Positions 1 through 16,160 of a stretch of 64,000 bases of DNA are shown in pieces. The notes below the pieces were generated by a model, which was not told where the DNA came from, searched no databases, and worked only from the letters and a program-made list of their open reading frames with translations. Numbering within the stretch: position 1 is the first letter of the stretch; each line of letters opens with the position of its first letter. Origin of the DNA: a virus; IMG/VR virus record IMGVR_UViG_3300025646_005060, positions 1 to 64,000 of that record; one strand, 5' to 3'. Both the position numbers and the translations under genes were made by a program.

Positions 1-117
1 CCTTGTTCTCCAGTAGCACCAGTTGGACCTTGAATTCCTTGTTCTCCAGTAGCACCAGTTGGACCTTGAATTCCTTGTTCTCCAGTAGCACCAGTTGGAC
101 CTTGAATTCCTTGTTCG
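1..117. repeat. 36-nt tandem repeat (~3.2 copies) encoding [12 protein letters not shown] collagen units
   Basis: ccttgttctccagtagcaccagttggaccttgaatt repeated head-to-tail with no spacers. Confidence 0.95.
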
Positions 118-572
118 CCTGTAGCTCCTGTAGCACCAGTTGGTCCTGTTGGTCCAATATCACCTTGTATTCCCTTTGGTCCTTGTAATCCAGGATCTCC
201 CTGTGGACCTTGAATACCTTGTTCACCAGTGGGACCAGTTGGACCCGTTGGACCGATAGGACCAGTTGGACCCGTTGGACCTGTTGGACCATCATTTGGT
301 GGAAGGAAAAAATTAGTATTATCCTCTGCTATCCATTTACCAGCAGAATTTCTGAATACTAAAATTCTACCGTCAAGATAATCAAATTCTGGATCCAAAG
401 AGACATCTAAAAGCTCATATAAATTTGAAGCACCAGTTGGTCCTGTCGGTCCTGTTGGTCCAGTAACTCCTTGAATACCTTGTGATCCAGGGAGTGCGAC
501 ACCAGGTGCTGTGGCAACAATCGTTGTTGCCATTCCCTGTTGTGTCACTGTTATTGTAGTTTCATTCGCCAT
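1..572 (-). CDS. Collagen-like fibre protein (3' end runs off the window)
   Basis: Not in the ORF track. ATG at 572 overlaps the TGA of the upstream gene (TGATG). Manual translation gives [17 protein letters not shown]...[12 protein letters not shown]...[12 protein letters not shown] repeats, with no stop before position 1. Confidence 0.9.
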
Positions 573-1798
573 CAATAAATTCCCCCATCAATTGGTATAT
601 CGCTGAAAGGTTTATTGATCCATTCGACTCCACTATAATAAAGAATATCAGCAGCAGTGACTCCAGAAAGAGTAACATCTGTAAGATCGCCTAATGCAGC
701 TGCACCTCCCCCACCGCCACCTCCACCACCAACAAGACGACAAAATCCAGATTGAAGGATTTTCGCATCACTTGTGCTGCTGAGATCTGCTGCTCCTCCG
801 CGAACAATAAGATGTCCAAGAAAGACTGCATTCAGGGCAGTGATTGGTGCTTCCGTAAAGATTTCATCCTGAACCCCAGCCAATGCATCGGAATATGAAT
901 TATAGATAACTCTTCCGTAGTATGTCATTATGACATCAGGAAGATTTGGAAACATATACATTCGTTGAATTGTATATTGATTGTTGTTTACTGTGGCAAG
1001 AGTTCCCGTGCCATCATCATATTTGGAAGGATCAACAACGCTGTAAAACGAAAGACTGTTAGTATCGTATATCCAATCCCCAGATCCATCACGATATATT
1101 CTTGCGAAGCTTGTAGAAATCTTTTCCGCAATATCAACATCATCAGGTTCAAACTGATCTGTTGGATAATGTCCACCTATGACAAGAGCATCACCAGCAG
1201 AACGATTGAGGGAGAGATTTGTTCCGTTTGGACTGACGATCAATCCAGACTTCTTGATTGGTCCTAATGTATCGTATAGTTCATAAACCTTGTGTGGAAT
1301 TTGATATGGAGTGAATTGCTTATTAGTGACAAGAGCGATTGTTGCCTGATCTATATGACTGATCGTTCCGATAATTATCTTATCGTTGTAATCCTCATGG
1401 GTGAACTCTGCTGTTTGTTGTATCAAATCTCCGTTGGTGTCGATGTAGACTCTTGTAAAATCGCTTGTTCCAAGATCCGTGATGGCAACATTATTGTAAG
1501 CATCCCATGTGACATATGTTGTATCAGCAGTAATGCCATTTATAGATGCACTATAATCTACAATTTGACCTATACCAGCAGAGACACTAAATGTAGTTCC
1601 ACCGACTGTGGCACTTAGAATACCCCCATAAAGGATGCCACTAAAGCTTTGCGGGGTATATTTGACATCACCAGTTAGACCATTCCAAGAAGAAACCGAT
1701 GAACCAATATATCGTTTCCATGCATAACCAGTCCACCTCCAAGTGGACTGGTCTATTGTATGCGTATCGGATAAAGAAGGTGATCTCGGGAATGCCAT
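572..1798 (-). CDS. Putative virion fibre/structural protein
   Basis: N-terminal FPxSP...TWxWxGxxW module typical of T4-like fibre proteins; C-terminal poly-Gly, LGDLTDV and DGG motifs; late promoter upstream. Confidence 0.7.
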
Positions 1799-1805
1799 GC
1801 AATAT

Positions 1806-1813
1806 TATTTATA
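1806..1813 (-). promoter_or_regulatory. T4-type late promoter TATAAATA
   Basis: Exact TATAAATA on the minus strand in the short intergenic gap upstream of 572..1798. Confidence 0.75.
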
Positions 1814-3046
1814 TTACTTGGCCTTCACCTTTTTCTTCTGCTTGCGAGTATTGACCTTTTTTGGTGCTTCTTGGGGAAGATTTGTCTTTGGTTGTGATTC
1901 CATGAACTTCTTTCGTTCCTCTCCAATCTGTTGAAGTATTTTGGTATATTGATTGAAATTATTGATCACTCGTTCCATATGTTCCTGTGGAATGCGATTT
2001 TCCTCTAGTAATTTCTTACATGCCAGATACCCGATTTCTGGTTTTCCTGCGGCATGTGCTGTAGCACCCACTTCGTCCAGTGCTGCGAACTTGTAGATAA
2101 AGTCTGGAACGAATAGAATCTCACCAGGAGGGAATGGAATTTCTGCTGCCTGACGAGCAAAGACAAATGCTGCTGCTGGTTTATTTTCAAGTTGTCTCAG
2201 AATTTGAGCAATATGAACAAGTGGTTCTGCGCGAATTGGACGATAATTGTATGCATCAAGGAACGCAGTAATAATTTCTCCCACTGGGTGTGCAAGAGTT
2301 GCTTTGCATACGGCAATGCGATACTTGGAATAATAGACTTCTTCTGCCCATCCTCCCATGTCCACTCTCTTCTGATATGCTTCAATTGCCTTATCGTATT
2401 GCTGAGAATCAAAGTACGACTGTGCCAAGTAGAATTGGTAACGAGTATTCTCTGGTTCGTCCTTGAGTGCTTCTACGAGAACTTCGGCATCTCGGGTATA
2501 CTTTTCAATCGCAGTGATTCCAACATTACGAGCACCAAGTGTTCTTGCGTTGATTGTGTAGTTAGGAACTTCAATCTTTACAAGTTTTGGTTTCTCTACA
2601 CCAGAGCAATGTGGGTATTCGTGAAGTACACCCTTATATTCCCAACCAACTCCAGTCTTAAATACTTGTGTTCTCCACCATGAGAATTCTGGTCTTCCCA
2701 TTCTGACGACATACCCATCGGCATCCATCTCTGGTGGGAATTGAATTGCTCCCTCCACAACGTCGTCTGCGTCAATCATCCACGCATATTGTGCCTTTCC
2801 ATCGCAATGACGCAGTGCAAGTGTTCGGTTGTGTCCGAAATTCTTCCACTCGTCTTGGTGAAGTTCTCCTGGAATTCCTTTTTCCTTGAAGAAGTTCTGG
2901 ATGATTTCCTGCGTTCCATCAGTGGAACCCGTATCGGAAATAACCCAGTAGTCAATATACTTGTGAATAGAGTTGAGACATTGTTCAATGATATGCGATT
3001 CATTTTTAACGATCATGCACAGGGCAATCTTTGGTTTACCATCCAT
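1814..3046 (-). CDS. Glycosyltransferase family 2 with TPR repeats (protein glycosyltransferase type)
   Basis: LCMIVKNE, DTGSTDGT, IDADD (DxD) and GVLHE motifs, followed by TPR-like helices (FYLAQSYFD...AIEAY). Confidence 0.9.
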   Translation of the reverse strand: MDGKPKIALCMIVKNESHIIEQCLNSIHKYIDYWVISDTGSTDGTQEIIQNFFKEKGIPGELHQDEWKNFGHNRTLALRHCDGKAQYAWMIDADDVVEGAIQFPPEMDADGYVVRMGRPEFSWWRTQVFKTGVGWEYKGVLHEYPHCSGVEKPKLVKIEVPNYTINARTLGARNVGITAIEKYTRDAEVLVEALKDEPENTRYQFYLAQSYFDSQQYDKAIEAYQKRVDMGGWAEEVYYSKYRIAVCKATLAHPVGEIITAFLDAYNYRPIRAEPLVHIAQILRQLENKPAAAFVFARQAAEIPFPPGEILFVPDFIYKFAALDEVGATAHAAGKPEIGYLACKKLLEENRIPQEHMERVINNFNQYTKILQQIGEERKKFMESQPKTNLPQEAPKKVNTRKQKKKVKAK

Positions 3047-3224
3047 AAAAAGGTTCTCTCTTTGTTAATTTAAATTTCACTTTTCCACATTGTGATATAT
3101 CTTTTATAAATCTATTTTTAATATGCGATATATCCTTTTTATTTATACACAATGATGAATGGACTTCACCATTCAAATATACAGTTATCCATATTTGTTC
3201 ACCAAATTTTAATTGAGTTTTCAC
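3036..3224 (-). CDS. Small hypothetical protein
   Basis: 62 aa; GTG start overlaps the upstream stop (GTGA); fills the gap in the operon. Confidence 0.55.
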   Translation of the reverse strand: MKTQLKFGEQIWITVYLNGEVHSSLCINKKDISHIKNRFIKDISQCGKVKFKLTKREPFYGW

Positions 3225-3829
3225 AATCTTGCCTTTGCAAAGATGATATTTGTATGATTATGAAAATGAGTATAATAACCGATAGAAGAAAAATGTTCTT
3301 GTAATCGTTGTTGTTGATTGTCATGTTCAATGCAAATAACTTTAGTATTGAGTTTATTGTAATCCAATAATGTAGAAAAATTAGCAGATTGTCCTTCAAC
3401 ATCTATATTCACAAAATCGATATTTGATGGAAGTAATTGATAAAGAATATTTTTATCAATTACTGGAGCAAATATTTTTTTAAATTTACATCCAGATCCA
3501 TTCTTCCATTTTTCAATATGGTTTGCATCTGTAGATGATATCCCATCACCAATGCTGTCATAAAATAAAGTAACACCAGATTTATCTCCAAACAAAGAAT
3601 CAATTAAAGTTATTTTATCATTATCTTTATATTCATCAATAAATCTAGACATAGCAGAAGGTGATCCTTCCACATAACATCCAGACCAATTTCTTTCAAC
3701 TAAAAAACGAGTATTTGAAAAAATAGTAGGATGATATGCACCTATCTCTAAAAAATATCCATCATCACCAAGAATATCTTTTAATATTTTATCTTCTTCA
3801 TATTGACTATAGGATACAAATTCAGACAT
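3221..3829 (-). CDS. FkbM-family SAM methyltransferase
   Basis: YSQxxED, FLEIGA, SNT, IDFVNIDVEG and ICIEH motifs. Confidence 0.85.
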   Translation of the reverse strand: MSEFVSYSQYEEDKILKDILGDDGYFLEIGAYHPTIFSNTRFLVERNWSGCYVEGSPSAMSRFIDEYKDNDKITLIDSLFGDKSGVTLFYDSIGDGISSTDANHIEKWKNGSGCKFKKIFAPVIDKNILYQLLPSNIDFVNIDVEGQSANFSTLLDYNKLNTKVICIEHDNQQQRLQEHFSSIGYYTHFHNHTNIIFAKARL

Positions 3830-4832
3830 TAAATCTATCCCTCATGTCTAGATCCGCAGTGCTCAGTGATGGTAGACCATTTAATTGAACATCAATCCAC
3901 TCATAAGTCTTCTCAATGCCAACACGAAGAGATTGAGTAGGTTCCCATCCGACTTTCTCAGTATAAAGTTTATTATCAGAATTTCTTCCTCTAACCCCAA
4001 CAGGTCCAGAAATATTATTCACCGAAAGATTCTTACCAGATACATCAATGACCATCTGAGCAAGATCGTTGATCTTGATCATTTCCTCTGAACCGATATT
4101 TACTGGTCCTGTAAAATCAGATTCCATCAAGCGACAAGTTGCCTCTACACATTCATCAATATAAAGGAAGGAACGAGTCTGTTGTCCATCTCCCCAGACA
4201 TCAATGCCAGTACCATTTTCTGCTTGTGCAACTTTACGACAGAGTGCAGCAGGAGCTTTCTCCTTACCACCCTGCCATGTGCCTTCTGGACCAAAGATAT
4301 TATGATAACGAGCAACACGAACATTTAACCCATGATTGCGCGCATATGCGAGGTAAAGTCTTTCACTGAAAAGTTTCTCCCACCCATATTCACTGTCTGG
4401 TGCTGCTGGATAAGCGGAGTCTTCCGAACACTTTGGATTTTCTGGATCTTCTTGGTTGTATGCTGGATACATACATGCCGAAGATGAGTAGAAAACTTTT
4501 CCTACTTTAGTTTTGTGACATCGTTCCACAACATTCAAATTAATGAGTGCAGAATTGTGCATGATGTCAGCATCGTGCTCTCCAGTAAAGATATACCCAG
4601 CACCACCCATATCTGCTGCTAATTGATATACTTCGTCAAATTGAATATTGAAAGCTTTATCACAAACTTGCTGTGATCTTAAATCTCCAATAATAAAATC
4701 ATCTGCTGGAGACTTTGAAAAATCTGGGTATTTGAGATCAACTACTCTTACCCAATGACCTTCTCTCTTGAATCGCTTTACAAGATGAGAACCAATAAAT
4801 CCACCACCACCAAGTACAAGTATCTTTTTCAT
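3822..4832 (-). CDS. GDP-mannose 3,5-epimerase-like NAD-dependent epimerase
   Basis: GGGGFIG Rossmann motif, LAADMGG, SSAC, YGWEK and GGKEKAPAALCRK match the GME subfamily of extended SDRs. Confidence 0.88.
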   Translation of the reverse strand: MKKILVLGGGGFIGSHLVKRFKREGHWVRVVDLKYPDFSKSPADDFIIGDLRSQQVCDKAFNIQFDEVYQLAADMGGAGYIFTGEHDADIMHNSALINLNVVERCHKTKVGKVFYSSSACMYPAYNQEDPENPKCSEDSAYPAAPDSEYGWEKLFSERLYLAYARNHGLNVRVARYHNIFGPEGTWQGGKEKAPAALCRKVAQAENGTGIDVWGDGQQTRSFLYIDECVEATCRLMESDFTGPVNIGSEEMIKINDLAQMVIDVSGKNLSVNNISGPVGVRGRNSDNKLYTEKVGWEPTQSLRVGIEKTYEWIDVQLNGLPSLSTADLDMRDRFNV

Positions 4833-4844
4833 ATTAAATATCCT

Positions 4845-5477
4845 TTATTTTTTAGTAAATACTTTAAACAATGTTTTGTTCTCTATAAACCTTTGATTGA
4901 AAGGTTCGTGTGGTTGTAAAACATTGTAATCAATATCATGATCAAAAATTTCATGACCAAAATCATGCGCCATCATCATATCACCACTCTTAAGTAAAGA
5001 AGAATACATATAAACTTCTTTAGCTTTATTTCCCCCATCACATATAATTAAAGTTTTATATTTTTTAATATTCTCAGAAATGACATTATAAGAAAATTCT
5101 GAGAATATATCAGACTCAAATGATTTACAAAATGGACAGATTGATTCCATTTTTTCAAACCAATGCCCAGCACCTTCATGTTCTCTATTATTCCAATCTG
5201 ATTTAGTAATATCAAATGTATGAAATATAAATTGCTCAGTCACGCATGCAATCGTGCCAAGGTATATAGACAATCCACCCTTCTGAGATCCTATTTCCAC
5301 CACATATTCTGGTTTTTCATGTGCAATGTAATTTTCTAGCAATTTAAATGCAGCAAAATTTTGAGAAGCTCCACCCCCCAAAATTCTAGTATTTACTTGC
5401 CGCATAGACTCACAATCTATAGAAACATCAAAACTATGCCTCGGTATAGAAATACCATGTTTTTCATTAAATTTCAT
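4845..5477 (-). CDS. Class I SAM-dependent methyltransferase (CmcI/Methyltransf_24-like)
   Basis: VVEIGSQKGG motif I, CDGG, LKSGD..AHD. Confidence 0.7.
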   Translation of the reverse strand: MKFNEKHGISIPRHSFDVSIDCESMRQVNTRILGGGASQNFAAFKLLENYIAHEKPEYVVEIGSQKGGLSIYLGTIACVTEQFIFHTFDITKSDWNNREHEGAGHWFEKMESICPFCKSFESDIFSEFSYNVISENIKKYKTLIICDGGNKAKEVYMYSSLLKSGDMMMAHDFGHEIFDHDIDYNVLQPHEPFNQRFIENKTLFKVFTKK

Positions 5478-6196
5478 TATAATCCTCTGTTGATAAAAAT
5501 ATGTTGCTTTTCCTCATAATCACTTTCAAATGTCAAAACATTATTGTGTATCGATATCAATGACATATATTTTAACTCATCAAACCATTGATATGATATA
5601 TTCTTATAATGTAATTGTTCTGCCAAACAACACTCTGGAATCATAGTTCGTATGTAACTATTTAGACCGAGATATACTGATGAATATTCTTTCATTGAAT
5701 TATAGTCACCAATAGCAAAATTATCAGCAACAAAAGGTAAATTATAACCTTCTAAAATAAAATTATTTCTAGGCGCATATGTGTTTTTGTTCCATCCATT
5801 TAATCTAATATGCACATTATTAGGTATTATTTTTGGTAAAACAAATTTATTTATATAAAGAGAATCAAATCTACTTCTAATAATTATATCATAATCGTCA
5901 GGGACAAGAGAAAAACTCTTGTATATACTATAATACATTGGGACAATGTTTGCTTTTTTTGTGCATTTCAAAAAATTCCAATCAGAATTGAAATTTTCTA
6001 TTTCATATTTTTTTGCTAACCTAGAATATAATTTTTCATTATTTTTATTTTCAATAAATCTATCAGTTAATGAATCTGATTTCCATGTGTGGATAAACAC
6101 ATCCGCATTTAGTGGTTTTATGACATTTTCTACTAAAAATGATGAAGTTTCGTCAAAGCACCTATCTATACCAGATAAACATATAGCAATTTTCAT
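5477..6196 (-). CDS. Putative glycosyltransferase (WavE-related)
   Basis: KIAICLSG, DVFIHTW, MYYSI, YDIIIRSRFD, DNFAIG and PE motifs seen in polysaccharide-locus proteins. Confidence 0.55.
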   Translation of the reverse strand: MKIAICLSGIDRCFDETSSFLVENVIKPLNADVFIHTWKSDSLTDRFIENKNNEKLYSRLAKKYEIENFNSDWNFLKCTKKANIVPMYYSIYKSFSLVPDDYDIIIRSRFDSLYINKFVLPKIIPNNVHIRLNGWNKNTYAPRNNFILEGYNLPFVADNFAIGDYNSMKEYSSVYLGLNSYIRTMIPECCLAEQLHYKNISYQWFDELKYMSLISIHNNVLTFESDYEEKQHIFINRGL

Positions 6197-6627
6197 AAAC
6201 TATTCCTCCATAATAAAGGATGATCGGTACAGACACCCCATACATTGGGAATCTTACTAGGCTTTCCCAACTCAACAGTCACACCCAAACTGCTATAGTT
6301 TCCAGGATACATCCAAGGAGTACCATTGCTAGTCAAGGTCATCTTGTCAGTCTGATGCCAGAAGCAGTTTACATCTCCCCACAATAGAAGTTTTTCCATT
6401 GCTTCTGTATTTTTCACATGACACCAAAGGGAAGTTCGACTTGTTATCCAACTACGATCTACAAGATAGGTTGGTGCATCGTGACCAAGGAAGAACTCTC
6501 CATCAACAAACCACACATCCACCTCGACATCAAATCCCCTTGCGATTGCCTCCTCGATATAGAGAGGATTGTTTTCGCAATCAGGCATTCTGCCATCTAG
6601 GTTTCCGCGATGCGAGATGATCTTCAT
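6193..6627 (-). CDS. Glycerophosphodiester phosphodiesterase-like (PLC-like) protein
   Basis: ISHRGN, EN, DVEVDVW, LGHD, HVKN and CTD motifs. Confidence 0.75.
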   Translation of the reverse strand: MKIISHRGNLDGRMPDCENNPLYIEEAIARGFDVEVDVWFVDGEFFLGHDAPTYLVDRSWITSRTSLWCHVKNTEAMEKLLLWGDVNCFWHQTDKMTLTSNGTPWMYPGNYSSLGVTVELGKPSKIPNVWGVCTDHPLLWRNSL

Positions 6628-7343
6628 CTTCCCTTCCTATTCATGTAGGCATTCAGATCCTCGGGTGTGCCGATTCCGTGCATCTTGTCTACGAAGAACG
6701 GAATCAGAGTTCCACCCCAACCGATCAACTCATTGTAGACAGGGGCAATGTAGAACTCGTTGTTCACGCGGATGTTCTTATCGATCATCTGCTCCGCAGC
6801 CTTGACGAAATCCGATCCTTTGCGATACCAATAGATTCCACAGGTGGCGATATCGGAGATTGGATTCTTTTCCGCAACCTTCGTGATGACACCTCGCGAG
6901 TTGGTCTTGACGAATGACCACTTAGGATGCACCGCATGGAAGCAGAACACCAAGGCATCTACGCTGGAGAAGTTCTTGATGTATTGGAAGTTCTCTGGGC
7001 TATATTCTATGATCTGATCTGAGTTGGCAATCAGAAGATCGTCATCATTGTTGATATGATACTTCGCAAGTAGTGCCGTGCATGCAGCACCTTCAGTAAG
7101 ACCATCGACCTCCACAATCTTGTACTTGCCATTCGTGATGCGGTCTAGTGTGGATTCCAGACCTGCATATTTGTCGATATGCTCCTTGCGAACAAGAAAG
7201 ATGTATGTCGCATCGAAGTCGAGGTTCTCAACAACCCGCTGAATCATGGGCTTGCCTTCGACATCAATCAGAGGCTTTGGGAAGGTATACCCTTCCTTCG
7301 CAAACCTGCTACCCTCTCCCGCCATCGGAATCAAAATCTGCAT
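6624..7343 (-). CDS. Sugar-phosphate nucleotidyltransferase (IPMAG subfamily)
   Basis: IPMAGEGSRF...PKPLI, TEGAACT, NSDQ, AEK, EFYIAP and GTPEDL. Confidence 0.85.
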   Translation of the reverse strand: MQILIPMAGEGSRFAKEGYTFPKPLIDVEGKPMIQRVVENLDFDATYIFLVRKEHIDKYAGLESTLDRITNGKYKIVEVDGLTEGAACTALLAKYHINNDDDLLIANSDQIIEYSPENFQYIKNFSSVDALVFCFHAVHPKWSFVKTNSRGVITKVAEKNPISDIATCGIYWYRKGSDFVKAAEQMIDKNIRVNNEFYIAPVYNELIGWGGTLIPFFVDKMHGIGTPEDLNAYMNRKGR

Positions 7344-7954
7344 CGTTCACTCTCCACAAAGTTGATGTAGTTCTTTAGTGTAACCTTGGTTGTATCCGTC
7401 ACAACCCATATGTGTCCTGCAATACTGCCTACTGCCGCCTCTATTCCCTTGGGTGAATCCTCCACACAGACACATGCAGTTGGCTCGACTCCAAGAGTAG
7501 TTATAGCATGGTTGTAGCAGTCGGGATAGGGCTTGTTCCTCGCGACCATCTCATTGCTGACGAGCAAGTCGATGTACGGCATCTGTCCCGTTGCCGTGAG
7601 CATCTCTCTTGCAGTCTCTTCAATTGAGTTCGTCACGCATGCTATCTTGATGCCCTTGGATTTCAGGTACTCATGAAGTTCAATCTTCTCATGCATGATG
7701 TTAGCAGATGATTGTATGATGTCAAGAGTATGCTTCTGCTTGCTTGCATTTATGGAAGTGGCAACATCATCAGGGACTCCAAGCATCTGCAACTTGACTC
7801 GCGTGGGCAAACCGTTGTAGGTGGATAGGTGCGACTCTCTGTCGATGACAGGGTAGCCTGCACCGACTAGAGCAGCATTCAATGCCTCGTAGTGCCAATC
7901 ACATGCATCCACAAGAACACCATCAAGATCAAATAATACACATTTAATCTTCAT
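7331..7954 (-). CDS. HAD-superfamily phosphatase
   Basis: FDLDGVLVD, VTNS, KPYPD and EDSPKG; start trimmed to the ATG at 7954, next to the upstream stop. Confidence 0.88.
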   Translation of the reverse strand: MKIKCVLFDLDGVLVDACDWHYEALNAALVGAGYPVIDRESHLSTYNGLPTRVKLQMLGVPDDVATSINASKQKHTLDIIQSSANIMHEKIELHEYLKSKGIKIACVTNSIEETAREMLTATGQMPYIDLLVSNEMVARNKPYPDCYNHAITTLGVEPTACVCVEDSPKGIEAAVGSIAGHIWVVTDTTKVTLKNYINFVESERCRF

Positions 7955-8738
7955 ATGGTCCATATAAATCTTCATAATAATATTCACCTTCACTCGGATA
8001 CCAATTATATGGATACGAATTCCAATTATATTTTGTCCAGACCAAATCGATCTTGGGAATTACTTTAAACACTTTGTCTCTTACTTTTTCTGAAAAAATT
8101 CTTGCATCAGGTTTAATTGAGTTATCTACCAAATATTCTTTAAAATTTTGCAGATATAAATCGACTTCTTCATATATTTGCCTAAAATACATTGCTCCAA
8201 GATAAATATTAGGCCTCATGTATTGTTTAAAATCATTTGATTCTATTTTCATTTTTTCTGGTTTCAATGGAATGTCAAAAAGTCGATAAATATCATCCCT
8301 ATATCCCCAGAAAAGATGGTCTTGTGGATGAAAAGGATGTCGATTATTCATCCCTATTACAAAAATATTACCTTTTCTTTTAATTCCATCAGAATATACC
8401 AACTCAGTGTCATTGATATTTTTATTAACAAAATTAAAAAGCATATTCATGCTATTAATATTAATTGTTTGATCTGAGCGAACTTTAACAACCATTTCAC
8501 TGGTTGTTGCTTTTATTCCTTCAAAAGAGGATACAATCTGTAAATTCATATTTCCCAAATCACTAGAATCTGGTTTTTTTGATTTAATAATAAATATTTT
8601 TGAATTATCAATTGATTCGACATCATCTGTATCCCATGTTGAAATTATTACCTTATTGACAAATGGCAACGTCGAATAATATTTTGCTGTTGATGTTGTG
8701 GTATTCCACATACCACCTTGTATTACAATATCAAGCAT
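7944..8738 (-). CDS. WavE-family lipopolysaccharide synthesis protein
   Basis: DIVIQG, IISTW, NMNLQIVSSFEG, KVRSD and PFHPQDHLFWG. Confidence 0.75.
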   Translation of the reverse strand: MLDIVIQGGMWNTTTSTAKYYSTLPFVNKVIISTWDTDDVESIDNSKIFIIKSKKPDSSDLGNMNLQIVSSFEGIKATTSEMVVKVRSDQTININSMNMLFNFVNKNINDTELVYSDGIKRKGNIFVIGMNNRHPFHPQDHLFWGYRDDIYRLFDIPLKPEKMKIESNDFKQYMRPNIYLGAMYFRQIYEEVDLYLQNFKEYLVDNSIKPDARIFSEKVRDKVFKVIPKIDLVWTKYNWNSYPYNWYPSEGEYYYEDLYGPYED

Positions 8739-9102
8739 ATGATTTTTCTTCCCTTATAGTCGAATTGCTTAATTTATTAATTTTGTTCTTAATACTGAAT
8801 CTAATATCGTTGGATATATAAACAGAACGAGCAAGTTCAATGAATTCATAATCAAATTCCATTTTAGATTCCTTTATTCTTATTTTATCCTCAATGTCCC
8901 ACAATTTTTCATTTATTTCTTTTAATTTTTTTATTTCAGATTCAAATATATTTAAATAATCATTCTCATTTAAAGAAAAAAATAATGTATTCTTTTCTTT
9001 TATTATATTTGCTAACTTATTATCATCTTTTATCCTTTCAGATTTAATAACAAGTATAGTATATTTATCAATTACTTCTCCAACAGATGCTTCTATAATC
9101 AT
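8731..9102 (-). CDS. DUF6165-like protein
   Basis: SVGEVIDKYTIL, NEKLWDIED, FIELARSVY and EEKSY; ATGA overlap supports a start at 9102. Confidence 0.75.
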   Translation of the reverse strand: MIIEASVGEVIDKYTILVIKSERIKDDNKLANIIKEKNTLFFSLNENDYLNIFESEIKKLKEINEKLWDIEDKIRIKESKMEFDYEFIELARSVYISNDIRFSIKNKINKLSNSTIREEKSYA

Positions 9103-9824
9103 GAAATATATTTCCAATCTTTTTTATAAATTTTATTGATGTAATTAAAGTTTGAATATTGCGGTGAACCATCAATGACTCTCCCATATACAAATAATTT
9201 ATTAGTTGTATTTAAACATTCAATCAAATAACACAGAGATGTTTCCACTGTATGAATTTCCTCTGCATTTTCCAAAATCCAACTTAAGTCAAAAAAATTA
9301 AACTGGTGTAAATGCTCTTCCGTTTGTTCAATGATTCTCCAATTCGTTTCTACAGTAATATTTCTTTGATATATCTTGGGGGGAGATGCAAATAATGAAT
9401 TAACAAATACAAATTTTTCATTATCATTTAAACCAAGTTTTTCTTTACATGCTTTTTCTCTATCTGCAAATCTCTTAAAATTAATATAATTTTGCCAATT
9501 GTTAAAATCAGAATTTACTAATTTATATTTTGCCTCCATAAAATCAAAATGACGCCCAGGAATTTTTGCAACATCAAATGGAATATACATATAATCTTTA
9601 TTAGATATTAAATTATCTGATTTGTACAATTCTTGTATCTCACATGACAAATCATTCATAGAAACATAATTAATATTATCTGATGAATTATAATCTTTAA
9701 GATATTGATAATGCTCAATGACTGGCCAGATCACTTGATAATCTTTTTCAACAAATTTATTTACTGCTTTTTGTAAAAAAAGAATATCACCAATTCCTGC
9801 GGGTTGTCGAATATAAACAATCAT
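9099..9824 (-). CDS. Putative GT-B/GT9-like glycosyltransferase
   Basis: GIGDILF near the N-terminus and AEEIHTVETS near the C-terminus; start trimmed to 9824. Confidence 0.5.
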   Translation of the reverse strand: MIVYIRQPAGIGDILFLQKAVNKFVEKDYQVIWPVIEHYQYLKDYNSSDNINYVSMNDLSCEIQELYKSDNLISNKDYMYIPFDVAKIPGRHFDFMEAKYKLVNSDFNNWQNYINFKRFADREKACKEKLGLNDNEKFVFVNSLFASPPKIYQRNITVETNWRIIEQTEEHLHQFNFFDLSWILENAEEIHTVETSLCYLIECLNTTNKLFVYGRVIDGSPQYSNFNYINKIYKKDWKYIS

Positions 9825-9828
9825 TTTA

Positions 9829-10506
9829 TTATTTTTTAATCCAAAATGCGTTTCCAGTTCCATTCTTTATTTCATTATCAAGTCCTATAGAATGTAAAGA
9901 AAATTTATCATCTAAATAGTTTTTCAAATCATCCATAAAACATTGCCCATCATATATTTGATTGATTTTATTTTCAGACAATTGAACTTCCGCAAATATA
10001 GAAGAAACGTTATCTAAATTTGTTCCTTTCAGCACTTCAAGTTCTGCTCCTTGAACATCTATACTTAGAAGATCTATATTTTCTTTTATTATATTTTCTA
10101 GTTTATCAGATTTTACTTTAATTTTAAATACAGACTTGAAAGAATAACCACTATTATTATTTTCTATAACTGGATAAATCGAATCAGATCCAGGTGAAGA
10201 TGTTCTGTAAAAATAAATATCGCCTACGATATTGGATATGGCAATGTTGTGCAGTTCGCATCTTGGATTCGATCCATATTTTTGTTTTATAATGTCAAAA
10301 AATTCAGAAACTGGTTCAAAAATATAAATTTTAGCATTTTTATACAATTGCAAATAAATTTCTGCTTCCCAACAATGATATCCACCTACAATTGCTATCA
10401 CGTTAATATCATCTTTTGATTTGTTGATATATAAATTAAAATTTGATTCGATATCTCTTGATATAATATCGTATGCGTTGGATTCGTTGTAAATTATTGT
10501 TTTCAT
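9829..10506 (-). CDS. FkbM-family SAM methyltransferase
   Basis: IFEP, IDLLSIDVQGAELEVLKG and IFAEV. Confidence 0.85.
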   Translation of the reverse strand: MKTIIYNESNAYDIISRDIESNFNLYINKSKDDINVIAIVGGYHCWEAEIYLQLYKNAKIYIFEPVSEFFDIIKQKYGSNPRCELHNIAISNIVGDIYFYRTSSPGSDSIYPVIENNNSGYSFKSVFKIKVKSDKLENIIKENIDLLSIDVQGAELEVLKGTNLDNVSSIFAEVQLSENKINQIYDGQCFMDDLKNYLDDKFSLHSIGLDNEIKNGTGNAFWIKK

Positions 10507-12038
10507 TTTTGAGTCTCAGTTGTATTGGGGTCGAATAGGTAATGATACATTACTTTGTCTATATTAAAATTGTATTCGGATTTAATAAGTTTAGACTCTA
10601 ATAATCTATCACAGTAATCTGCATCTTCTGCAAAGTTTTTCTCTGGGAATTTAATTTGCCTAGCAAATTCAGTCCTTACTGGATTTAGATGATTGAGTGG
10701 TCTGTGTTGTTTTCCATCTTTCTTAAAATGCCCACCGTTGGCATTTGAATGATTAAACTCCATAACGGGGTTTCCAGAAACATAATATATTCCCCAAAAT
10801 CCAACACCATCATATAAATCAGTATCAAGAACATTGAGTATTTCACTTAAATACCATTTTGAAACAATATCATCATCGTCTATAAAGCAAACATATTTTC
10901 CTTTTGCTTTATCTAATATTTCATTTCGTTTTGTGCCTACAGATTTTTCTTTGTTATCTTCGGAAATGACAATTTCTATTCTGTGTGAAAACGTTACAGG
11001 ACAAGTTTTTTGTAATATGTTTAAAAGATTATTTAATTTTTCTTTTCTCTGTGGGAGTGTCAATATTCCTATGGTTAATAATATATCTTCTTTATTCATT
11101 TTATAATTTCTTTCAGTAGTTATTACTTCTTCTATGCGTCTGAAAAGATCTCTTCCATATTCTTTTGCTTTTTCATAATTTTTATCAATATATTTTTTCA
11201 TTTTATCATATGTTTTTTCATTTATAGAATTAACTTTTTCTAAAAAATCTTCATATGATTCGAATTGTATGATTCCTCTAATATCAAAAAAATCACCAAT
11301 ATTAGGACATCCCCAGTAAATTGGAACTGTTTTTGTTAATAAACAATCTATTAATTTTTCTGTAAAATAATTAACTTCAGAACTACTTTCAATTGCAATG
11401 CTAAACATTGAATTGTATAAATGAATTTTATCATCATTTGGAAGCAATCCATCGTGCAATGTATTTGAAAATTTCCCATCATTTGTGGGGTATCGCGTGC
11501 TGCTGTAAAAAACTGTATTGTTTTCTATTAATTCTTTTTTATTCCAAATCATACATCTCAAATTATAACCAGTTTTGCCCAAATGAGAAGTTGTAAGAAA
11601 TGATATATTATACTGTTTTGTGATATCACTTAATATCGATTCATCAAATACTCCAAGACTGTCATTATGTCTGGATTTATTTTTATTCAACCACGTTCCA
11701 CCGTATGGTAAAAATTTAGCATTTGGTAAATTTAATAATACCTCTTCTTCGGTGCAAATTATTAAATCATATTGATATCCATTAAAAATAATATTTTTAT
11801 TAGATTCTCTATTATATGATGAACTAGGTTCTGTATTACACACAAAAACTTTAAAAGAATTTTTATTTTCAAATTCAATAATCTTATCAACAATAGGTCT
11901 ATGTAAATAATTAGTAACATATTTGTGATCAATGCAGGTTGCAGTGTTCCCAAATCTGGTGAAATGAATTTCACATGGAAACTCAAATTCCATTGGATCA
12001 AATCCAAAATAATCAGCATTATATACAGTTGCTTTCAT
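10503..12038 (-). CDS. Bifunctional GT10 (alpha-1,3-fucosyltransferase-like) + GT2 glycosyltransferase
   Basis: FSIAIES..YFTEKLIDC..TVPIYWG (GT10), then LTIGILT...GKYVCFIDDDD...AED (GT2). Confidence 0.8.
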   Translation of the reverse strand: MKATVYNADYFGFDPMEFEFPCEIHFTRFGNTATCIDHKYVTNYLHRPIVDKIIEFENKNSFKVFVCNTEPSSSYNRESNKNIIFNGYQYDLIICTEEEVLLNLPNAKFLPYGGTWLNKNKSRHNDSLGVFDESILSDITKQYNISFLTTSHLGKTGYNLRCMIWNKKELIENNTVFYSSTRYPTNDGKFSNTLHDGLLPNDDKIHLYNSMFSIAIESSSEVNYFTEKLIDCLLTKTVPIYWGCPNIGDFFDIRGIIQFESYEDFLEKVNSINEKTYDKMKKYIDKNYEKAKEYGRDLFRRIEEVITTERNYKMNKEDILLTIGILTLPQRKEKLNNLLNILQKTCPVTFSHRIEIVISEDNKEKSVGTKRNEILDKAKGKYVCFIDDDDIVSKWYLSEILNVLDTDLYDGVGFWGIYYVSGNPVMEFNHSNANGGHFKKDGKQHRPLNHLNPVRTEFARQIKFPEKNFAEDADYCDRLLESKLIKSEYNFNIDKVMYHYLFDPNTTETQK

Positions 12039-12703
12039 TTCTTATTTCCCACTAAATTATAATTAACAAGTTCTTCAGTCAGACCCATTTCGCGAAGACT
12101 CTTTTCCTTTGACTCTCCATCAGCAACACCAATTGTTATCATTGCCACGGTTCCATCTGGTGGTAAATTGCCAGGCCATATGGCATAGTTCTGACCAAGC
12201 ATACCAATACGCATCTTTCCAAGATACTTTGGCATTACATAGTGCATCAAAATTTCATGATCAAATACTTTAATTCCTTTTTCGGAATTTTCATGACCTT
12301 CGCAAGCATCAACCCATGTTTTCAAGAATTCAATGGCAATTGGTGTGTAGTTGATATAGATTGGCGATGCCTTCGGTGTGGTGGGTTTCACATGTGGTGG
12401 CATTCCATCATAGGCAAATGCCATGTCACATTTATCTTGCAAATCATCAAATACCTTCAACTCGGCATGAATGAGTGAATCTACGTCCAACCAGACGAAT
12501 GGTTTCTTCTTATGCTCCAATGTCTTGAGAAGAAACTTTGGTTTTGCCAGACAATTTAAACGATACTCACCACGCGATTTCATCTTCTTGATGTCGTGGG
12601 GTATATTATTCTCATTGCAATTAATACGCAACCGTGCTGCATGATCGCTATAGTAAGTGCGATTGTCTATGTCGCAATAAAAGGAAACGATTTCAGTCTT
12701 CAT
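12035..12703 (-). CDS. Putative nucleotide-diphospho-sugar transferase (GT-A fold)
   Basis: KPKFL, VWLDVDS (DxD), FLKTW and DHE motifs. Confidence 0.65.
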   Translation of the reverse strand: MKTEIVSFYCDIDNRTYYSDHAARLRINCNENNIPHDIKKMKSRGEYRLNCLAKPKFLLKTLEHKKKPFVWLDVDSLIHAELKVFDDLQDKCDMAFAYDGMPPHVKPTTPKASPIYINYTPIAIEFLKTWVDACEGHENSEKGIKVFDHEILMHYVMPKYLGKMRIGMLGQNYAIWPGNLPPDGTVAMITIGVADGESKEKSLREMGLTEELVNYNLVGNKK

Positions 12704-13529
12704 AAATTAACCTGTATAATGTGTCGTCTGCGTTCTCTAACCTTTGAACCCTTTCAAAGTTATCACGAACAGCATCCATTTTAGATTGATAAAGATCTAT
12801 TGTCAAGTCTTTTGGATTAAATGATGGAGTTAATTCTATAATTCCATCCTTGTTAAACACATCACCGATGTCTGGTGCTCCCCAGTAAATCGGGATAGTT
12901 CCAGTGGCAAAGCAGTCTGTAAGTTTTTCAGTATAGTATGTTTCGTACTTATCGTTCTCGACTACAATCTGAAAACGATAGTCGTTCAGTGCCTCTTCCT
13001 TATCCCATGTGGTCTTGCCAATACGATTAGACCCATGAGCACCACCGAAGAGGTCTAAGGAGTCTCTGTAGATACGAGCAACGTTATGCCTTAGATTGTG
13101 ACCAAAGACAAAGGTCTTGGGCGATGCGACCATTGAAAGAGATCTTGTCTTGAAGAAGATCTGCTGATTCTTCGTCCATGGAAGATTTGATCCTGCTGGG
13201 CAATATCTTACATTTGGGTGCTTGCCCACCCACGATTTCTCAGATGTAAAGAGCAGATCGTATGAGTCGCAAATATTGTTGAATTGACTTTCCCACACAT
13301 CCCGTGGACATGACATGACATGAAAAATAGCACGGGATTCGCATACCCATGCTATTTTCTTTTCTCCAGGTTTCTTATCATAAGGTATACCCGAAAGTAT
13401 ACCACGATCAATGAAAACCTTTACTGGACAATCATCTGTCGTCCATTCAAATGTTTTTGGTTTTAAATCAGAGCAAGAGGAGTGCTGTATATCAAAGGGA
13501 GCACCAATCGCTTGGAATTTTGGTAACAT
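12693..13529 (-). CDS. GT10 alpha-1,3-fucosyltransferase-like glycosyltransferase
   Basis: YRFQIVVEN..YYTEKLTDCF..GTIPIYWG. Confidence 0.85.
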   Translation of the reverse strand: MLPKFQAIGAPFDIQHSSCSDLKPKTFEWTTDDCPVKVFIDRGILSGIPYDKKPGEKKIAWVCESRAIFHVMSCPRDVWESQFNNICDSYDLLFTSEKSWVGKHPNVRYCPAGSNLPWTKNQQIFFKTRSLSMVASPKTFVFGHNLRHNVARIYRDSLDLFGGAHGSNRIGKTTWDKEEALNDYRFQIVVENDKYETYYTEKLTDCFATGTIPIYWGAPDIGDVFNKDGIIELTPSFNPKDLTIDLYQSKMDAVRDNFERVQRLENADDTLYRLIYED

Positions 13530-13548
13530 AGTATAGAATCTCCATTAC

Positions 13549-13555
13549 TATGTAT
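13549..13555 (-). promoter_or_regulatory. Putative variant late promoter ATACATA at the head of the glycosylation island
   Basis: The same heptamer recurs upstream of gp19 and gp18; here it is followed by a GGAG RBS. Confidence 0.45.
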
Positions 13556-13950
13556 CACTTTCCAATGTGGTACTTTGGAATCAATTGCCAATTCTTTTTG
13601 TCTTTGTGAGGAATGATTTTTAGTCTGGCAAGCGACAATTGAGGAGAAGCATATGACTGCGAATCTACTGCTTCAACGAGTCCCCATTCGATGAGAAGTT
13701 TGACGATGGTGTTTCTTCTGCCGATGTCGTCGTCAGACATATCCGAATCCAACCCATCAAGAATAAACATTTCCTTAAAATGTACGATAGCATAACGACC
13801 TCTCTTGTGAAGAATATGACACGATTGATACAGTTTATTTTCAGTCTTTGATGATACCCCAATTCGGGTTAACGTTTCTTTGACTTTCAAGAAGTCTTCT
13901 TCTTTGTTTAGGCGGACTTCTACACCTACACCTTCAAAAATATCTTCCAT
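13555..13950 (-). CDS. regA: Translational repressor RegA
   Basis: DFLKVKETLTRIG, LYQSCHILHKRGRYAIVHFKE, RRNTI and W.L.PKY.IG. Confidence 0.97.
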   Translation of the reverse strand: MEDIFEGVGVEVRLNKEEDFLKVKETLTRIGVSSKTENKLYQSCHILHKRGRYAIVHFKEMFILDGLDSDMSDDDIGRRNTIVKLLIEWGLVEAVDSQSYASPQLSLARLKIIPHKDKKNWQLIPKYHIGK

Positions 13951-13973
13951 AATATCTCCATTATTACGAAAGA

Positions 13974-13981
13974 TATTTATA
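13974..13981 (-). promoter_or_regulatory. T4-type late promoter TATAAATA upstream of regA
   Basis: Exact motif in the intergenic gap, followed by a GGAG RBS. Confidence 0.65.
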
Positions 13982-13984
13982 TTT

Positions 13985-14356
13985 TTAACGTTTTTGACCC
14001 CCTCTTTGGGTCATCTGGCGCAGGGTTTCCATAGGAACCAAATCCAATACCTCTCTTGCGCGTGTGTCTGAATACCCATAGACCTCCTTGATAACCTCTA
14101 TGTCGGCATTCTCTTCAGATTTAATCCACTTGGAGAATCTCTTTCGCTTGGAGATGGATTCCCGCAGGTAATCATACTGCATCTTCTTGTCCAGAAACGA
14201 CACCTCATTCATACGGTTGGCATAAAAGATTGTGTCTGGAAAGTAAGAAAAGCACTTATTAACTACAAAAGGAACATAATCCTTCTCTAGACGGGGGTCT
14301 TTGAGAAGATCTTCCTTGGTCTGATTGATGGAATTAAGTATATCCGAAAGGTTCAT
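13985..14356 (-). CDS. gp62: Clamp loader small subunit (T4 gp62-like)
   Basis: LNSINQTK, YVPFVVN, QYDYL and KRKRFSKW; ATGA overlap with gp44. Confidence 0.93.
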   Translation of the reverse strand: MNLSDILNSINQTKEDLLKDPRLEKDYVPFVVNKCFSYFPDTIFYANRMNEVSFLDKKMQYDYLRESISKRKRFSKWIKSEENADIEVIKEVYGYSDTRAREVLDLVPMETLRQMTQRGGQKR

Positions 14357-15297
14357 GAGAATGCACAAGACATCATTAGTTGCACCAGACATGCCACCAG
14401 ATTGATCTCCTGGTCAGCAACGAACGCCGACTTGTACTGGTAGTCAGCGAGGATTAGGATTGCCTCTGGAATGCTCTGCTTCTCCAGATGGTCTGTAAGG
14501 GCATCGTAGATTTTACGGTAGATCTCCTGTGGAGATGTCTCTGCATTGATTGCTGCCCACCGACGAACTGAAGCAAAATCCTTACTGGACAATGCCTTCA
14601 TCAGACTGTTGATCTCAGCATCCTGAACGGATGAAAGGATACCAATGTCAATCTTACCCGACACCGAATACCTCTGAAGTTCATTCAGAATACGACGCAT
14701 GTCGGGAAAGTGCTTCATGATCAATTGACCAAGCACCTTCTTGTCAAATGTGATACCTTCCTTACCCAGAATATAGGAACATCGCTCCATCATCTGAGCA
14801 GCAATCTTCGGTTTCTCAGAATTTGGAAGCGAGAAGTCAATACAAGTGCATCGCGAATGAATCGGTTCAATGATACGAGACTTGTAATTGCATGTTAGAA
14901 CAAATCTACAGTTGTTTGAGAACTCCTCAATCGCACCACGAAGGGCGGGTTGAATGCTGTTGGCATTTGAGTAGTCAAACTCGTCTAGGATGACTACCTT
15001 CTTCACATCACCCGTCAGAGATACAGTACTGGCAAACTGACGAATCTTGGTTCGCAGTGTGTCAATGTTTCCTTCCTCTGAGCAGTTGATGATAATCCAA
15101 TCACAACCCATCTCATTACAGAGTGCCTTGGCAACGGTAGTCTTGCCCACTCCCGCAGATCCAGAGAATAGAAGGTTTTGTGGTTCTCCCTTAGCAACCA
15201 TGTCGCTGAAGGTTGACTTCAGCGACACGGGGAGAACACACTCTTCTATGGTCTGGGGACGATACTTCTCTACCCACAGAAAATTTTCAGGTTTCAT
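14353..15297 (-). CDS. gp44: Clamp loader large subunit (T4 gp44-like)
   Basis: LWVEKYRP, Walker A GSAGVGKTT, ILDEFD and SRC. Confidence 0.97.
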   Translation of the reverse strand: MKPENFLWVEKYRPQTIEECVLPVSLKSTFSDMVAKGEPQNLLFSGSAGVGKTTVAKALCNEMGCDWIIINCSEEGNIDTLRTKIRQFASTVSLTGDVKKVVILDEFDYSNANSIQPALRGAIEEFSNNCRFVLTCNYKSRIIEPIHSRCTCIDFSLPNSEKPKIAAQMMERCSYILGKEGITFDKKVLGQLIMKHFPDMRRILNELQRYSVSGKIDIGILSSVQDAEINSLMKALSSKDFASVRRWAAINAETSPQEIYRKIYDALTDHLEKQSIPEAILILADYQYKSAFVADQEINLVACLVQLMMSCAFS

Positions 15298-15984
15298 TTA
15301 ACCCCCATAGGTTGAAGTGTTTGCTTCCATGGCAAACCAGTACTTCAGTGAGATTGACTTATGAACAAACTCACCGACGATGTTCTTTGCAAAGTTGACT
15401 GTGTAATCTCCAGGAAGGATCTTGATGTTGTCCATCTTGAAGTTGAATTCAAACGGGGGTGCTTCTTCCGCATCACCAACAACGACCTTGTAACTATTCG
15501 TAGTTGGATCTGACAGATCAGAAACCTTGGCAAAGATCTTGCCATTTCGTTCGCGAACAAACGAAAGGTCTGGAAGTTGCATGACAGATGCTGCCTTCTG
15601 GAGTTCAGAGAACTGCTTTTCGGTAAGAGTAATACTCACCGAAATCTCTGGCATGATGACATCCTTGGTTGGGAACGACAGCAACTTTGGTTCTGAGTAA
15701 AAGTAGTTGACTACAGAATCTCCACCGTTCTTAATGCGGACACTCTTCTCACCGAAATCAAAAGTCGGATTATTGAAAAGACTGACTACACCAAGAAACT
15801 TGTTAAGATCCCAGATGCCAAATTCAACATCAAATGTTTCATCCACGGTTGCGACTGCCATTCCTGCCTTTGAAGGCGTAATGGTCTTAATTACATTACC
15901 AGGATTGACCAAAAGATTTGAATTTAGGTTTGAAAAGTTTTTTAGGATTGCTAGGGTATTCTTTGAAAAGGTCACTTGACTCAT
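15298..15984 (-). CDS. gp45: Sliding clamp (T4 gp45-like)
   Basis: TLAILKNF, FGIWDLNKFL and NIKILPGDY; synteny. Confidence 0.95.
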   Translation of the reverse strand: MSQVTFSKNTLAILKNFSNLNSNLLVNPGNVIKTITPSKAGMAVATVDETFDVEFGIWDLNKFLGVVSLFNNPTFDFGEKSVRIKNGGDSVVNYFYSEPKLLSFPTKDVIMPEISVSITLTEKQFSELQKAASVMQLPDLSFVRERNGKIFAKVSDLSDPTTNSYKVVVGDAEEAPPFEFNFKMDNIKILPGDYTVNFAKNIVGEFVHKSISLKYWFAMEANTSTYGG

Positions 15985-15989
15985 AATAT

Positions 15990-16160
15990 TCACCTCATGA
16001 ATTCATCTTCAAAATCGTCATTCTCAAAACCACTTTGCCAATATTCCTTAAGTTGGTGCTTGGACTTTACTCTTTCTGAATTTTTCTCCTTCTTGGAGAC
16101 TGACTTTAAATTCTTTTGTGGTTTTGGTTTCTCGTACTTATGCTTGTCATCGTTTCTCAT
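15990..16160 (-). CDS. Small basic/acidic hypothetical protein (56 aa)
   Basis: Below the ORF-track cut-off. Manual translation MRNDDKHKYEKPKPQKNLKSVSKKEKNSERVKSKHQLKEYWQSGFENDDFEDEFMR fills the gap upstream of gp45. Confidence 0.65.
   Translation of the reverse strand: MRNDDKHKYEKPKPQKNLKSVSKKEKNSERVKSKHQLKEYWQSGFENDDFEDEFMR

Follow-up and report, generated by a model that had tools for sequence, protein, structure and literature searches.

The locus and its described counterparts

In C. difficile, the glycosyltransferase SgtA, in which a GT-A catalytic domain is followed by a C-terminal TPR domain, is encoded immediately upstream of the gene for the collagen-like protein BclA3 and adds beta-O-GlcNAc to Thr residues of the BclA3 Gly-Pro-Thr (GPT) repeats in vitro (PMC7157674). 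A comparable arrangement is found in the stretch of DNA analyzed here (hereinafter, the window), that is, the first 64 kb of the 73.9-kb viral contig IMGVR_UViG_3300025646_005060 (IMG/VR), in which all genes are on the minus strand. Here, a sugar island of packed carbohydrate genes ends with the gene for GT2-TPR (1814-3046), a soluble, SgtA/SunS-like candidate protein glycosyltransferase and the conserved anchor of the locus, and is followed by a tail-fiber-like gene and a Thr-rich collagen-like fiber gene. We interpret this arrangement as a virion-fiber O-glycosylation locus of an aquatic T4-like myovirus and, judging from the sequence evidence, give this reading as a whole a probability of roughly 0.55. 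One step of it stands on firmer ground and, by analogy with the action of SgtA on BclA3, appears quite probable: GT2-TPR would glycosylate Thr residues of the phage collagen-like fibers. We infer this step from the fold, the sequence and the conserved gene pairing.

The likeness to the SgtA-BclA3 system includes the combination of GT-A with a C-terminal TPR domain, the soluble character of the enzyme and the location of its gene upstream of a Gly-Pro-Thr collagen gene. The two systems differ in that the substrate is a component of the spore exosporium in one case and of a phage in the other, here the collagen gene is separated from that of the enzyme by one fiber gene, GT2-TPR has a larger helical domain (residues ~179-384 of 410 aa vs 262-358 of 358 aa in SgtA), and, unlike SgtA, GT2-TPR is accompanied by a multi-gene, swappable sugar island. 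SunS and ThuS (7msn, 7msp, 7msk), the S-glycosyltransferases of glycocins, likewise combine GT-A with a TPR-like domain and match GT2-TPR structurally over its whole length, with the sequence matches reaching into the helical domain; however, the sequence identity is 13-17%, no gene for a glycocin-type Cys-rich peptide was seen nearby, and the acceptor expected here is the hydroxyl group of Thr in a structural protein. Listeria GmaR is also a GT2-TPR protein, a flagellin O-GlcNAc transferase that acts on the protein of a surface filament while it is still in the cytoplasm, but in this case only residues 4-98 of the query (~95 residues) align, GmaR is additionally an anti-repressor, and there is no flagellin here.

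Among viruses, mycobacteriophages and giant viruses are known to decorate their own structural proteins with virus-encoded glycosyltransferases (cited in PMC12619734). These systems rely on other enzyme families and modify other targets; none is T4-like, and none involves collagen Thr with a GT2-TPR initiator. Freeman and colleagues reportedly described, in 2023, mycobacteriophage virion glycosylation at the C-termini of the capsid and tail-tube proteins. Giant viruses (chloroviruses, mimivirus with its fibrils) encode sugar-nucleotide pathways as well, the targets being capsid or fibrils. Closer to the present case taxonomically, the "LPS gene" (lipopolysaccharide) clusters of cyanomyoviruses and pelagimyophages, such as P-SSM2, S-SM2, S-SSM7 and S-SCSM2R, have been read as functioning in modification of the host surface or of DNA (PMC3037559; PMC7029224; PMC12801897). 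These, too, are large, variable clusters of glycosyltransferase and sugar-nucleotide genes in T4-like aquatic phages, and those of pelagimyophages share a hypervariable region with tail-fiber genes, as is the case here; the difference is that a tblastn search of the phage collection (E 1e-5) detected no GT2-TPR homologue in cultured cyanophages. We found no paper proposing or showing glycosylation of collagen fibers in T4-like phages. Thus, virion glycosylation in mycobacteriophages and giant viruses and the SgtA-BclA3 pair are already known, and the version that involves collagen fibers of T4-like phages is put forward here as a new proposal.

The T4 core genes identified in the window with PHROG and Pfam encode the gp45 clamp, the gp44/gp62 clamp loader, RegA, gp46/47, the late sigma factor gp55, UvsW, the gp23 major head protein, the gp22 scaffold, the gp20 portal, the gp18 sheath and the gp17 terminase. 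In a nucleotide search of the phage collection, the only matches were short stretches of Synechococcus myovirus capsid genes, and the sugar island produced no megablast match. Given the T4 core genes and the restriction of the nucleotide matches to these capsid genes, the source is an uncultured T4-like myovirus that is probably related to cyanophages.

GT2-TPR and its association with collagen-like proteins

The catalytic domain of GT2-TPR is recognized by the Pfam model Glycos_transf_2 (2.5e-13), and its best sequence matches in PDB, GmaR (5.4e-10), SunS (4.5e-7) and the ThuS-type 7msk (2.8e-5), are all protein or peptide glycosyltransferases. The DTGSTD (D38/G40/S41/D43) and IDADD (DXD; D92-A-D94-D95) motifs are invariant in 33 homologues. 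An AF2 model produced from these homologues (pLDDT 88.9) has the GT-A fold, and the top six Foldseek matches are all SunS/ThuS structures, covering ~400 of 410 columns with E-values from 1e-16 to 3e-14 (best match: E 1.4e-16, TM 0.57, ~400 aligned columns). TarS (3e-8) comes next, and TarP is found at 5e-6; SunS/ThuS outscore these two by 8-10 orders of magnitude, and the group of teichoic-acid enzymes that also includes RmlT by eight. The helical domain consists, in the model, of ten helices spanning residues 179-384 and matches TPR proteins including the TPR domain of OGT; TPR_16, TPR_2 and other Pfam TPR models match residues 184-240, all below the cut-off. The family is large: among 8,000 metagenomic candidates scored (90%-identity clusters), at least 6,744 match GT2-TPR at E 1e-5 or better. 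At its C-terminus, GT2-TPR carries a Lys-rich, disordered tail (residues 390-410, pLDDT below 50), and the homologues from jumbo phages (L061-L080; L numbers denote individual loci) have a Lys-rich N-terminal extension instead; such segments could bind nucleic acid or membrane, or serve packaging.

The bacterial gene context is the strongest independent evidence for the link to collagen. Among the 80 best bacterial homologue loci (contigs of one genome per species), 39 contain a collagen-like open reading frame (ORF) within 6 kb of the enzyme gene, mostly on the same strand and mostly with Thr in the Y position of the triplets. In five isolate genomes (3.4-7.2 Mb) that were searched whole, this neighbor is the sole collagen gene in Pigmentiphaga and Tundrisphaera and one of 2-4 collagen genes in Stagnimonas, Giesbergeria and Methylobacterium; for a genome of 5 Mb, two genes would by chance lie within 12 kb of each other with a probability of ~0.2% per gene. 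Because this adjacency is far above chance, the GT2-TPR family appears to be functionally tied to Thr-rich collagen-like proteins.

Relatives of GT2-TPR in viruses are numerous (152 in IMG/VR and 317 in JGI metagenomes) and come in two architectures: either the island lies between regA and the GT2-TPR gene, as in the window, or GT2-TPR directly follows regA. A comparison of gene neighborhoods across related phage contigs, which the original prediction had proposed, showed that a collagen gene near GT2-TPR recurs in the island-type loci. Among de-duplicated loci with at least 3 kb of downstream sequence, 9 of the 14 island-type relatives have a collagen ORF at a distance of up to 3 kb, and 11 have one at up to 8 kb; the arrangement of an island with a following collagen is represented in three of the four T4-like subclades, that of the window included (subclades were delineated from a quick tree only). 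The collagens that immediately adjoin GT2-TPR have Thr at 50-85% of the Y positions; those of L012 and L013, which are located farther away (3.8-4.9 kb), belong to a charged, non-Thr class. In the cultured jumbo phage Tunturi_5, 3.7 kb separate the homologue from a GPT-collagen that is annotated as a "tail fiber protein" and has runs of 19, 20 and 28 triplets. In this genome (Tunturiibacter phage Tunturi_5, locus L251, PP885688.1, 28905-38126; 309 kb), the homologue, gp35, is annotated as a beta-1,4-glycosyltransferase and adjoins four paralogous proteins of ~285 aa (gp30-33) and the tail fiber gp29 with the long GPT runs. At the level of complete records, collagen proteins are encoded in all seven GT2-TPR virus records of 46 kb or more, and the jumbo-phage genomes with GT2-TPR relatives encode many collagens. 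In the architecture that lacks the island, the gene order is regA, GT2-TPR, dUTPase, Cpn10, speD, N6 DNA methylase and DNA polymerase; at 9300-11762 of L038 and in other such loci, the genes between GT2-TPR and the DNA polymerase encode a dUTPase, a DUF1599-like protein, a Cpn10-like co-chaperonin, S-adenosylmethionine decarboxylase (SpeD) and an N6/N4 DNA methylase.

In the window, both fiber genes that had been claimed to follow the island, one of them a Thr-rich collagen, are indeed there. The first (572-1798) encodes a 408-aa tail-fiber-like protein with a poly-Gly linker that belongs to a PHROG annotated "tail fiber" and matches tail-fiber/tailspike proteins of Streptomyces and Stenotrophomonas phages. 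Its stop codon overlaps the ATG of the collagen gene (TGATG), so that the two genes are translationally coupled. The collagen gene, of which only the 5' part is present (1-575; ORF 3-575; Pfam Collagen 1.2e-18), starts 1.2 kb downstream of GT2-TPR and encodes GPT/GAT-type repeats, with Thr at Y in 20 of the 39 triplets. A 36-nt tandem repeat in this gene (window positions 1-125; 3.5 copies, 97% matches) runs into the end of the contig, and the near-identical contigs L091 and L092 stop at the same collagen repeat; the repeat probably broke the assembly, so that only the 5' part of the gene is seen. Elsewhere in the window, at 36592-48652, there are four large fiber-like genes, three of which (1024, 1043 and 1452 aa) contain, in the N-terminal part, a brief run of 10-11 collagen triplets, mostly Gly-X-Thr/Ser; these collagen-bearing fibers would be further candidate substrates of GT2-TPR.

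Under the proposed mechanism, GT2-TPR would function in the cytoplasm of the infected cell as a soluble two-domain enzyme, with the TPR-like helical domain holding the protein substrate and the GT-A domain moving the first sugar onto Thr in the Y position of Gly-X-Thr repeats in the collagen-like fibers.

The sugar island, its exchange and its transcription

The upstream border of the variable region is formed by the gene for the translational regulator RegA (13555-13950; Pfam Translat_reg 3.5e-40), which itself follows gp44 (14353-15297) and gp62 (13985-14392). Behind it lie 15 packed carbohydrate genes, of which GT2-TPR is the last, then the tail-fiber-like gene and the collagen gene. Most of the island genes overlap by 1-50 nt, and the sole real gap, of 174 bp, precedes GT2-TPR; the tight, mostly overlapping packing described in the original prediction is accordingly retained, and its count of 14 genes is corrected to 15.

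In the order of transcription, the island begins with a GT10-like, GDP-L-sugar-dependent glycosyltransferase (12693-13529; Pfam GT10 4.9e-7; H. pylori alpha-1,3-fucosyltransferase 6e-11), a 222-aa GT-A glycosyltransferase of the Nucleotid_trans/GT34-like type (12035-12703), which has no Pfam hit and was assigned from Atlas features (0.98, 10 of 10 named hits in one clan), and a GT10-GT2 fusion glycosyltransferase of low GC content (0.28; 10503-12038). These are followed by a methyltransferase of the FkbM family (9829-10506; Pfam Methyltransf_21 4e-12), a 254-aa phage-family protein (9099-9863), the fold of which is fused to DUF5672/GT2 enzymes in other phages and for which the earlier GT9-like label goes no further than an Atlas lead (0.92), and a DUF6165 protein (8731-9117). 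Two WavE-like genes had been listed: the one at 7944-8738 matches the Pfam WavE model (4.6e-13), and the other, at 5477-6196, is a low-GC gene for a DUF7796/WavE-like protein with a weak DUF7796 match. Between these two genes lie those for a HAD hydrolase of the beta-phosphoglucomutase family, that is, a sugar-phosphate mutase or phosphatase (7331-7993), a sugar-1-phosphate nucleotidyltransferase (6624-7343; PDB 4evw, 9e-21) and a 144-aa protein (6193-6627; PHROG 34507) that recurs beside GT2-TPR in related loci, with homologues in L041, L045, L091 and L136. The GDPD-like designation of the latter is based on an HRG...EN...ExDxW...GHD motif discerned by eye and not on any Pfam hit. The island is completed by a CmcI/rhamnosyl O-methyltransferase-like protein (4845-5477; Pfam 4.4e-4, under the cut-off), an SDR epimerase (3822-4832), an FkbM-like methyltransferase (3221-3829; GC3 0.12) and GT2-TPR itself.

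The epimerase is a clear homologue of GDP-mannose 3,5-epimerase (GME): against the Arabidopsis enzyme (2c59) it scores 310 bits (2e-91), and against the next SDR family, 106 bits (1.7e-29). It is ~55% identical to the plant enzyme, as estimated from the alignment, in which the SSAC, YxxxK (YGxEK) and GGxEKAP motifs are kept; the Cys, the Tyr-x3-Lys and the Lys of these motifs are reportedly the catalytic residues (Major et al. 2005). Homologues with 68-84% identity are present in the phage loci L004-L010, L046, L099 and L130. Such an enzyme would yield GDP-L-galactose or GDP-L-gulose, which points to L-galactose or L-gulose in the glycan made by the phage. As suggested by family membership and gene position, the HAD mutase/phosphatase, the nucleotidyltransferase and the epimerase might together supply a GDP-L-hexose donor, the GT10, GT10-GT2, GT-A and WavE-like enzymes might extend the glycan, and the two FkbM-type and one CmcI-like methyltransferases might cap it.

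The island is a mosaic with respect to GC content, with blocks of 0.22-0.30 and others of 0.39-0.48, compared with 0.39 for the backbone and a backbone-like 0.43 for GT2-TPR. The sibling contigs L091 and L092, aligned with positions 1-7850 of the window, are 97-99% identical in the GT2-TPR DNA and 98% identical in the HAD gene; the nucleotidyltransferase, the 144-aa protein and the methyltransferase are only 68-74% identical, and a 2.4-kb block consisting of the GME, CmcI-like and DUF7796 genes is replaced by genes for a cupin, a GT2 and a sugar C-methyltransferase. On the other side of GT2-TPR, the fiber shows 58% protein identity, with the N-terminal two thirds of the gene diverged. Thus, given the near-identical enzyme and the differing flanks, both the island and the fiber are exchanged around a conserved GT2-TPR; such swapping of island and fiber genes as cassettes would allow close relatives to display differing combinations of fiber and glycan. 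In relatives, the genes immediately upstream of GT2-TPR encode sugar-nucleotide enzymes, and the commonest Pfam families of their islands are SDR/GMD, methyltransferases, DegT, TPP enzymes and GT2/10/17.

The T4-type late-promoter motif TATAAATA occurs nine times in the window, always on the coding strand (3.6 copies are expected on both strands, and 1 of 100 shuffles reached 9). The copy at 13974-13981, which had been noted as a late promoter in the original prediction, is confirmed and precedes the ATG of regA by 24 nt; another, at 3140-3147 within the 174-bp gap, precedes that of GT2-TPR by 94 nt, and a third, at 1806-1813, that of the fiber gene by 8 nt. The second motif claimed originally, ATACATA at 13549, found no support as a promoter. 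The ATAAATA core is present upstream of gp23 and gp22, too, and (C/T)ATAAATA is located 17-52 nt before GT2-TPR in L001, L002, L004, L013, L014, L019, L045 and L046. Together with the presence of the late sigma factor gp55 (19286-19894), the TATAAATA copies fit T4-type late transcription; judging from these motifs, gp55 might direct transcription from the promoters before regA, GT2-TPR and the fiber gene. Sigma-70-like promoters and terminators in 1-16000 were at the chance level. The 174-bp gap (3047-3220) also holds a possible 46-codon ORF starting from TTG, identified by eye, which contains TATAAATA and the stop codon of which overlaps the GT2-TPR start (ATGGATGGTAA). In the loci where GT2-TPR directly follows regA, the 35-50-nt spacer before GT2-TPR contains no xATAAATA, and a CTAAATA inside the 3' end of regA was dismissed as a late promoter, as it is not conserved. 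Most of 23 distinct loci of that clade (L015-L065) share a conserved GCTAAATA(A/T)T that precedes regA by ~55 nt; it may be the late-promoter variant of the clade, the window having TATAAATA at the equivalent site.

Alternative functions and biological implications

A number of observations weigh against the interpretation of the locus as one for fiber glycosylation. The loci in which GT2-TPR directly follows regA form a well supported clade, with 12 de-duplicated loci (35 of the first 80), that has no island and in which no locus (0 of 12) encodes a collagen within 8 kb; therefore, GT2-TPR can do without the island and without a fiber gene next to it. In jumbo-phage relatives (37-41% identity), the gene is found beside those for topoisomerase II subunits, with no collagen near. 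The quick tree implies few phylogenetically independent adjacency events within phages, and the presence of collagen proteins in all seven long records is weak evidence, given that many aquatic phages without the enzyme encode such proteins, too. Tail fibers and glycosyltransferases are known to co-accumulate in the hyperplastic region (PMC7029224), so that a common location in that region may account for part of the adjacency seen here. As for the enzyme itself, the NCBIfam SunS model (TIGR04195) gives GT2-TPR 42.6 bits against a cut-off of 350, that is, GT2-TPR shares the SunS fold and is not a SunS-family member by the curated score, and SgtA was likened to it via the published description (PMC7157674), not by alignment. 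The late expression posited in the original prediction is suggested by the motifs and gp55, and the island has no promoter of its own: the TATAAATA copy at 13974-13981 is the sole late motif able to drive the island proper, which lies behind the replication genes and is read from upstream of regA, and the island may therefore also be transcribed with these genes. The major capsid protein in the window contains no G-x-T-[GA]. Outside the collagen runs, this sequon occurs ~27 times in structural proteins (12 expected), and non-structural proteins are equally enriched (5 vs ~1.4); as it does not discriminate between the two classes, the sequon was rejected as a virion-wide glycosylation signal. 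Finally, LPS and O-antigen loci, too, typically encode enzymes of the WavE and GT10/GT2 types.

The last point bears on remodeling of the host surface, the usual reading of cyanophage and pelagiphage "LPS genes": the island, with or without GT2-TPR, would alter LPS, O-antigen or another envelope glycan, with superinfection exclusion or changed recognition by grazers as possible consequences. We consider this unlikely, although it has more to recommend it than the other alternatives: the WavE hit, the GT10, GT2 and GT-A enzymes and the sugar methyltransferases are all at home in O-antigen loci, the published interpretation of such clusters is of this kind (PMC3037559; PMC7029224; PMC12801897), and the island may be co-transcribed behind the replication genes gp45-44-62-regA. 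What such remodeling would be expected to involve is, however, missing. The island of the window encodes neither a flippase, polymerase or ligase nor an ABC transporter or initiating phosphoglycosyltransferase, and no Wzx/flippase, Wzy/polymerase, ligase or phosphoglycosyltransferase is among the 25 commonest of the 71 Pfam families in the islands of relatives. No hydrophobic 19-mer (Kyte-Doolittle (KD) 1.6 or above) was detected in any of the 17 proteins of the locus (15 of the island, GT2-TPR included, and two fibers) or in RegA, gp62 and gp44, and in 13 related loci, with 99 island ORFs in total, a single segment of this kind is present in each of two ORFs and no ORF contains more than one. 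Furthermore, the island always abuts a SunS/SgtA-like protein glycosyltransferase and fiber genes and is swapped together with the fiber, and bacterial genes of the GT2-TPR family show tight linkage to those for collagens. From the position of the island, its soluble-only content, the absence of lipid-carrier machinery and the swapping with the fiber, we infer that the island as a whole feeds the same glycan. Of the original claim that the locus makes a glycan coat for the virion, rather than modifying host LPS, the core consisting of GT2-TPR and the collagen is thus backed by fold, sequence and context, and the part concerning the entire island is more tentative.

Still less likely, in our assessment, is a split function, whereby GT2-TPR decorates the fibers with a simple host sugar, and the island is unrelated cargo of the hyperplastic region, either host-glycan genes or stuffer DNA. 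The clade that keeps GT2-TPR without the island fits this possibility, the GC mosaic suggests piecemeal acquisition, and the study of C. difficile SgtA identified no enzyme that would extend its product (PMC7157674). Conversely, the presence of the island tracks collagen adjacency (11/14 vs 0/12), the gene packing is so tight that stop codons overlap start codons, and sugar-nucleotide enzymes are encoded directly upstream of GT2-TPR in three subclades (GMD in L001 and L012, DegT in L005, an SDR-C-methyltransferase in L004 and an SDR in L018), all of which favors a joint function in fiber glycosylation.

Known GT-A DNA glycosyltransferases resemble TarP and JGT and are encoded beside genes for C5-methyltransferase/5mYOX or hydroxymethylase (10.1101/2023.12.21.572611). 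A nucleic acid or other non-virion target, such that GT2-TPR would glycosylate phage DNA or a host or replication protein, is highly improbable. It would accord with the position of the gene, which in one clade separates regA from DNA polymerase, in jumbo phages adjoins topoisomerase II and in Tunturi_5 has dUTPase, helicase and replication genes as neighbors, and with the Lys-rich disordered C-terminal tail, but the fold is of the wrong class, with SunS/ThuS far outscoring TarS and TarP, three T4-like records (54-86% complete) yielded no ThyA-type hydroxymethylase (PF00303), the neighboring methylase is of the N6/N4 type, and the linkage to collagen in bacteria has no rationale in terms of DNA.

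If the interpretation of the locus as one for virion-fiber glycosylation is correct, abundant aquatic T4-like phages would coat their fibers with self-made, rapidly exchangeable glycans, and virion glycosylation would extend from mycobacteriophages and giant viruses to the T4 superfamily. More tentatively, loci of this type in aquatic T4-like and jumbo phages might be thought of as "virion serotype" loci, in which GT2-TPR is a fixed recombination anchor, with a sugar cassette on one side and collagen-like fibers on the other. Tunturi_5, a cultured phage with the pairing of the enzyme and a GPT-collagen, would provide a ready experimental system. On the more tentative "virion serotype" view, many "LPS genes" of aquatic myophages would serve to glycosylate virions, with effects on host range, adhesion or grazing, and not to alter the host surface. 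Under the fiber-glycosylation interpretation, the long-puzzling "LPS gene" clusters of marine and freshwater myophages would be seen in a different light, and a carbohydrate layer would be added to host recognition by phages and to the stickiness of their particles.

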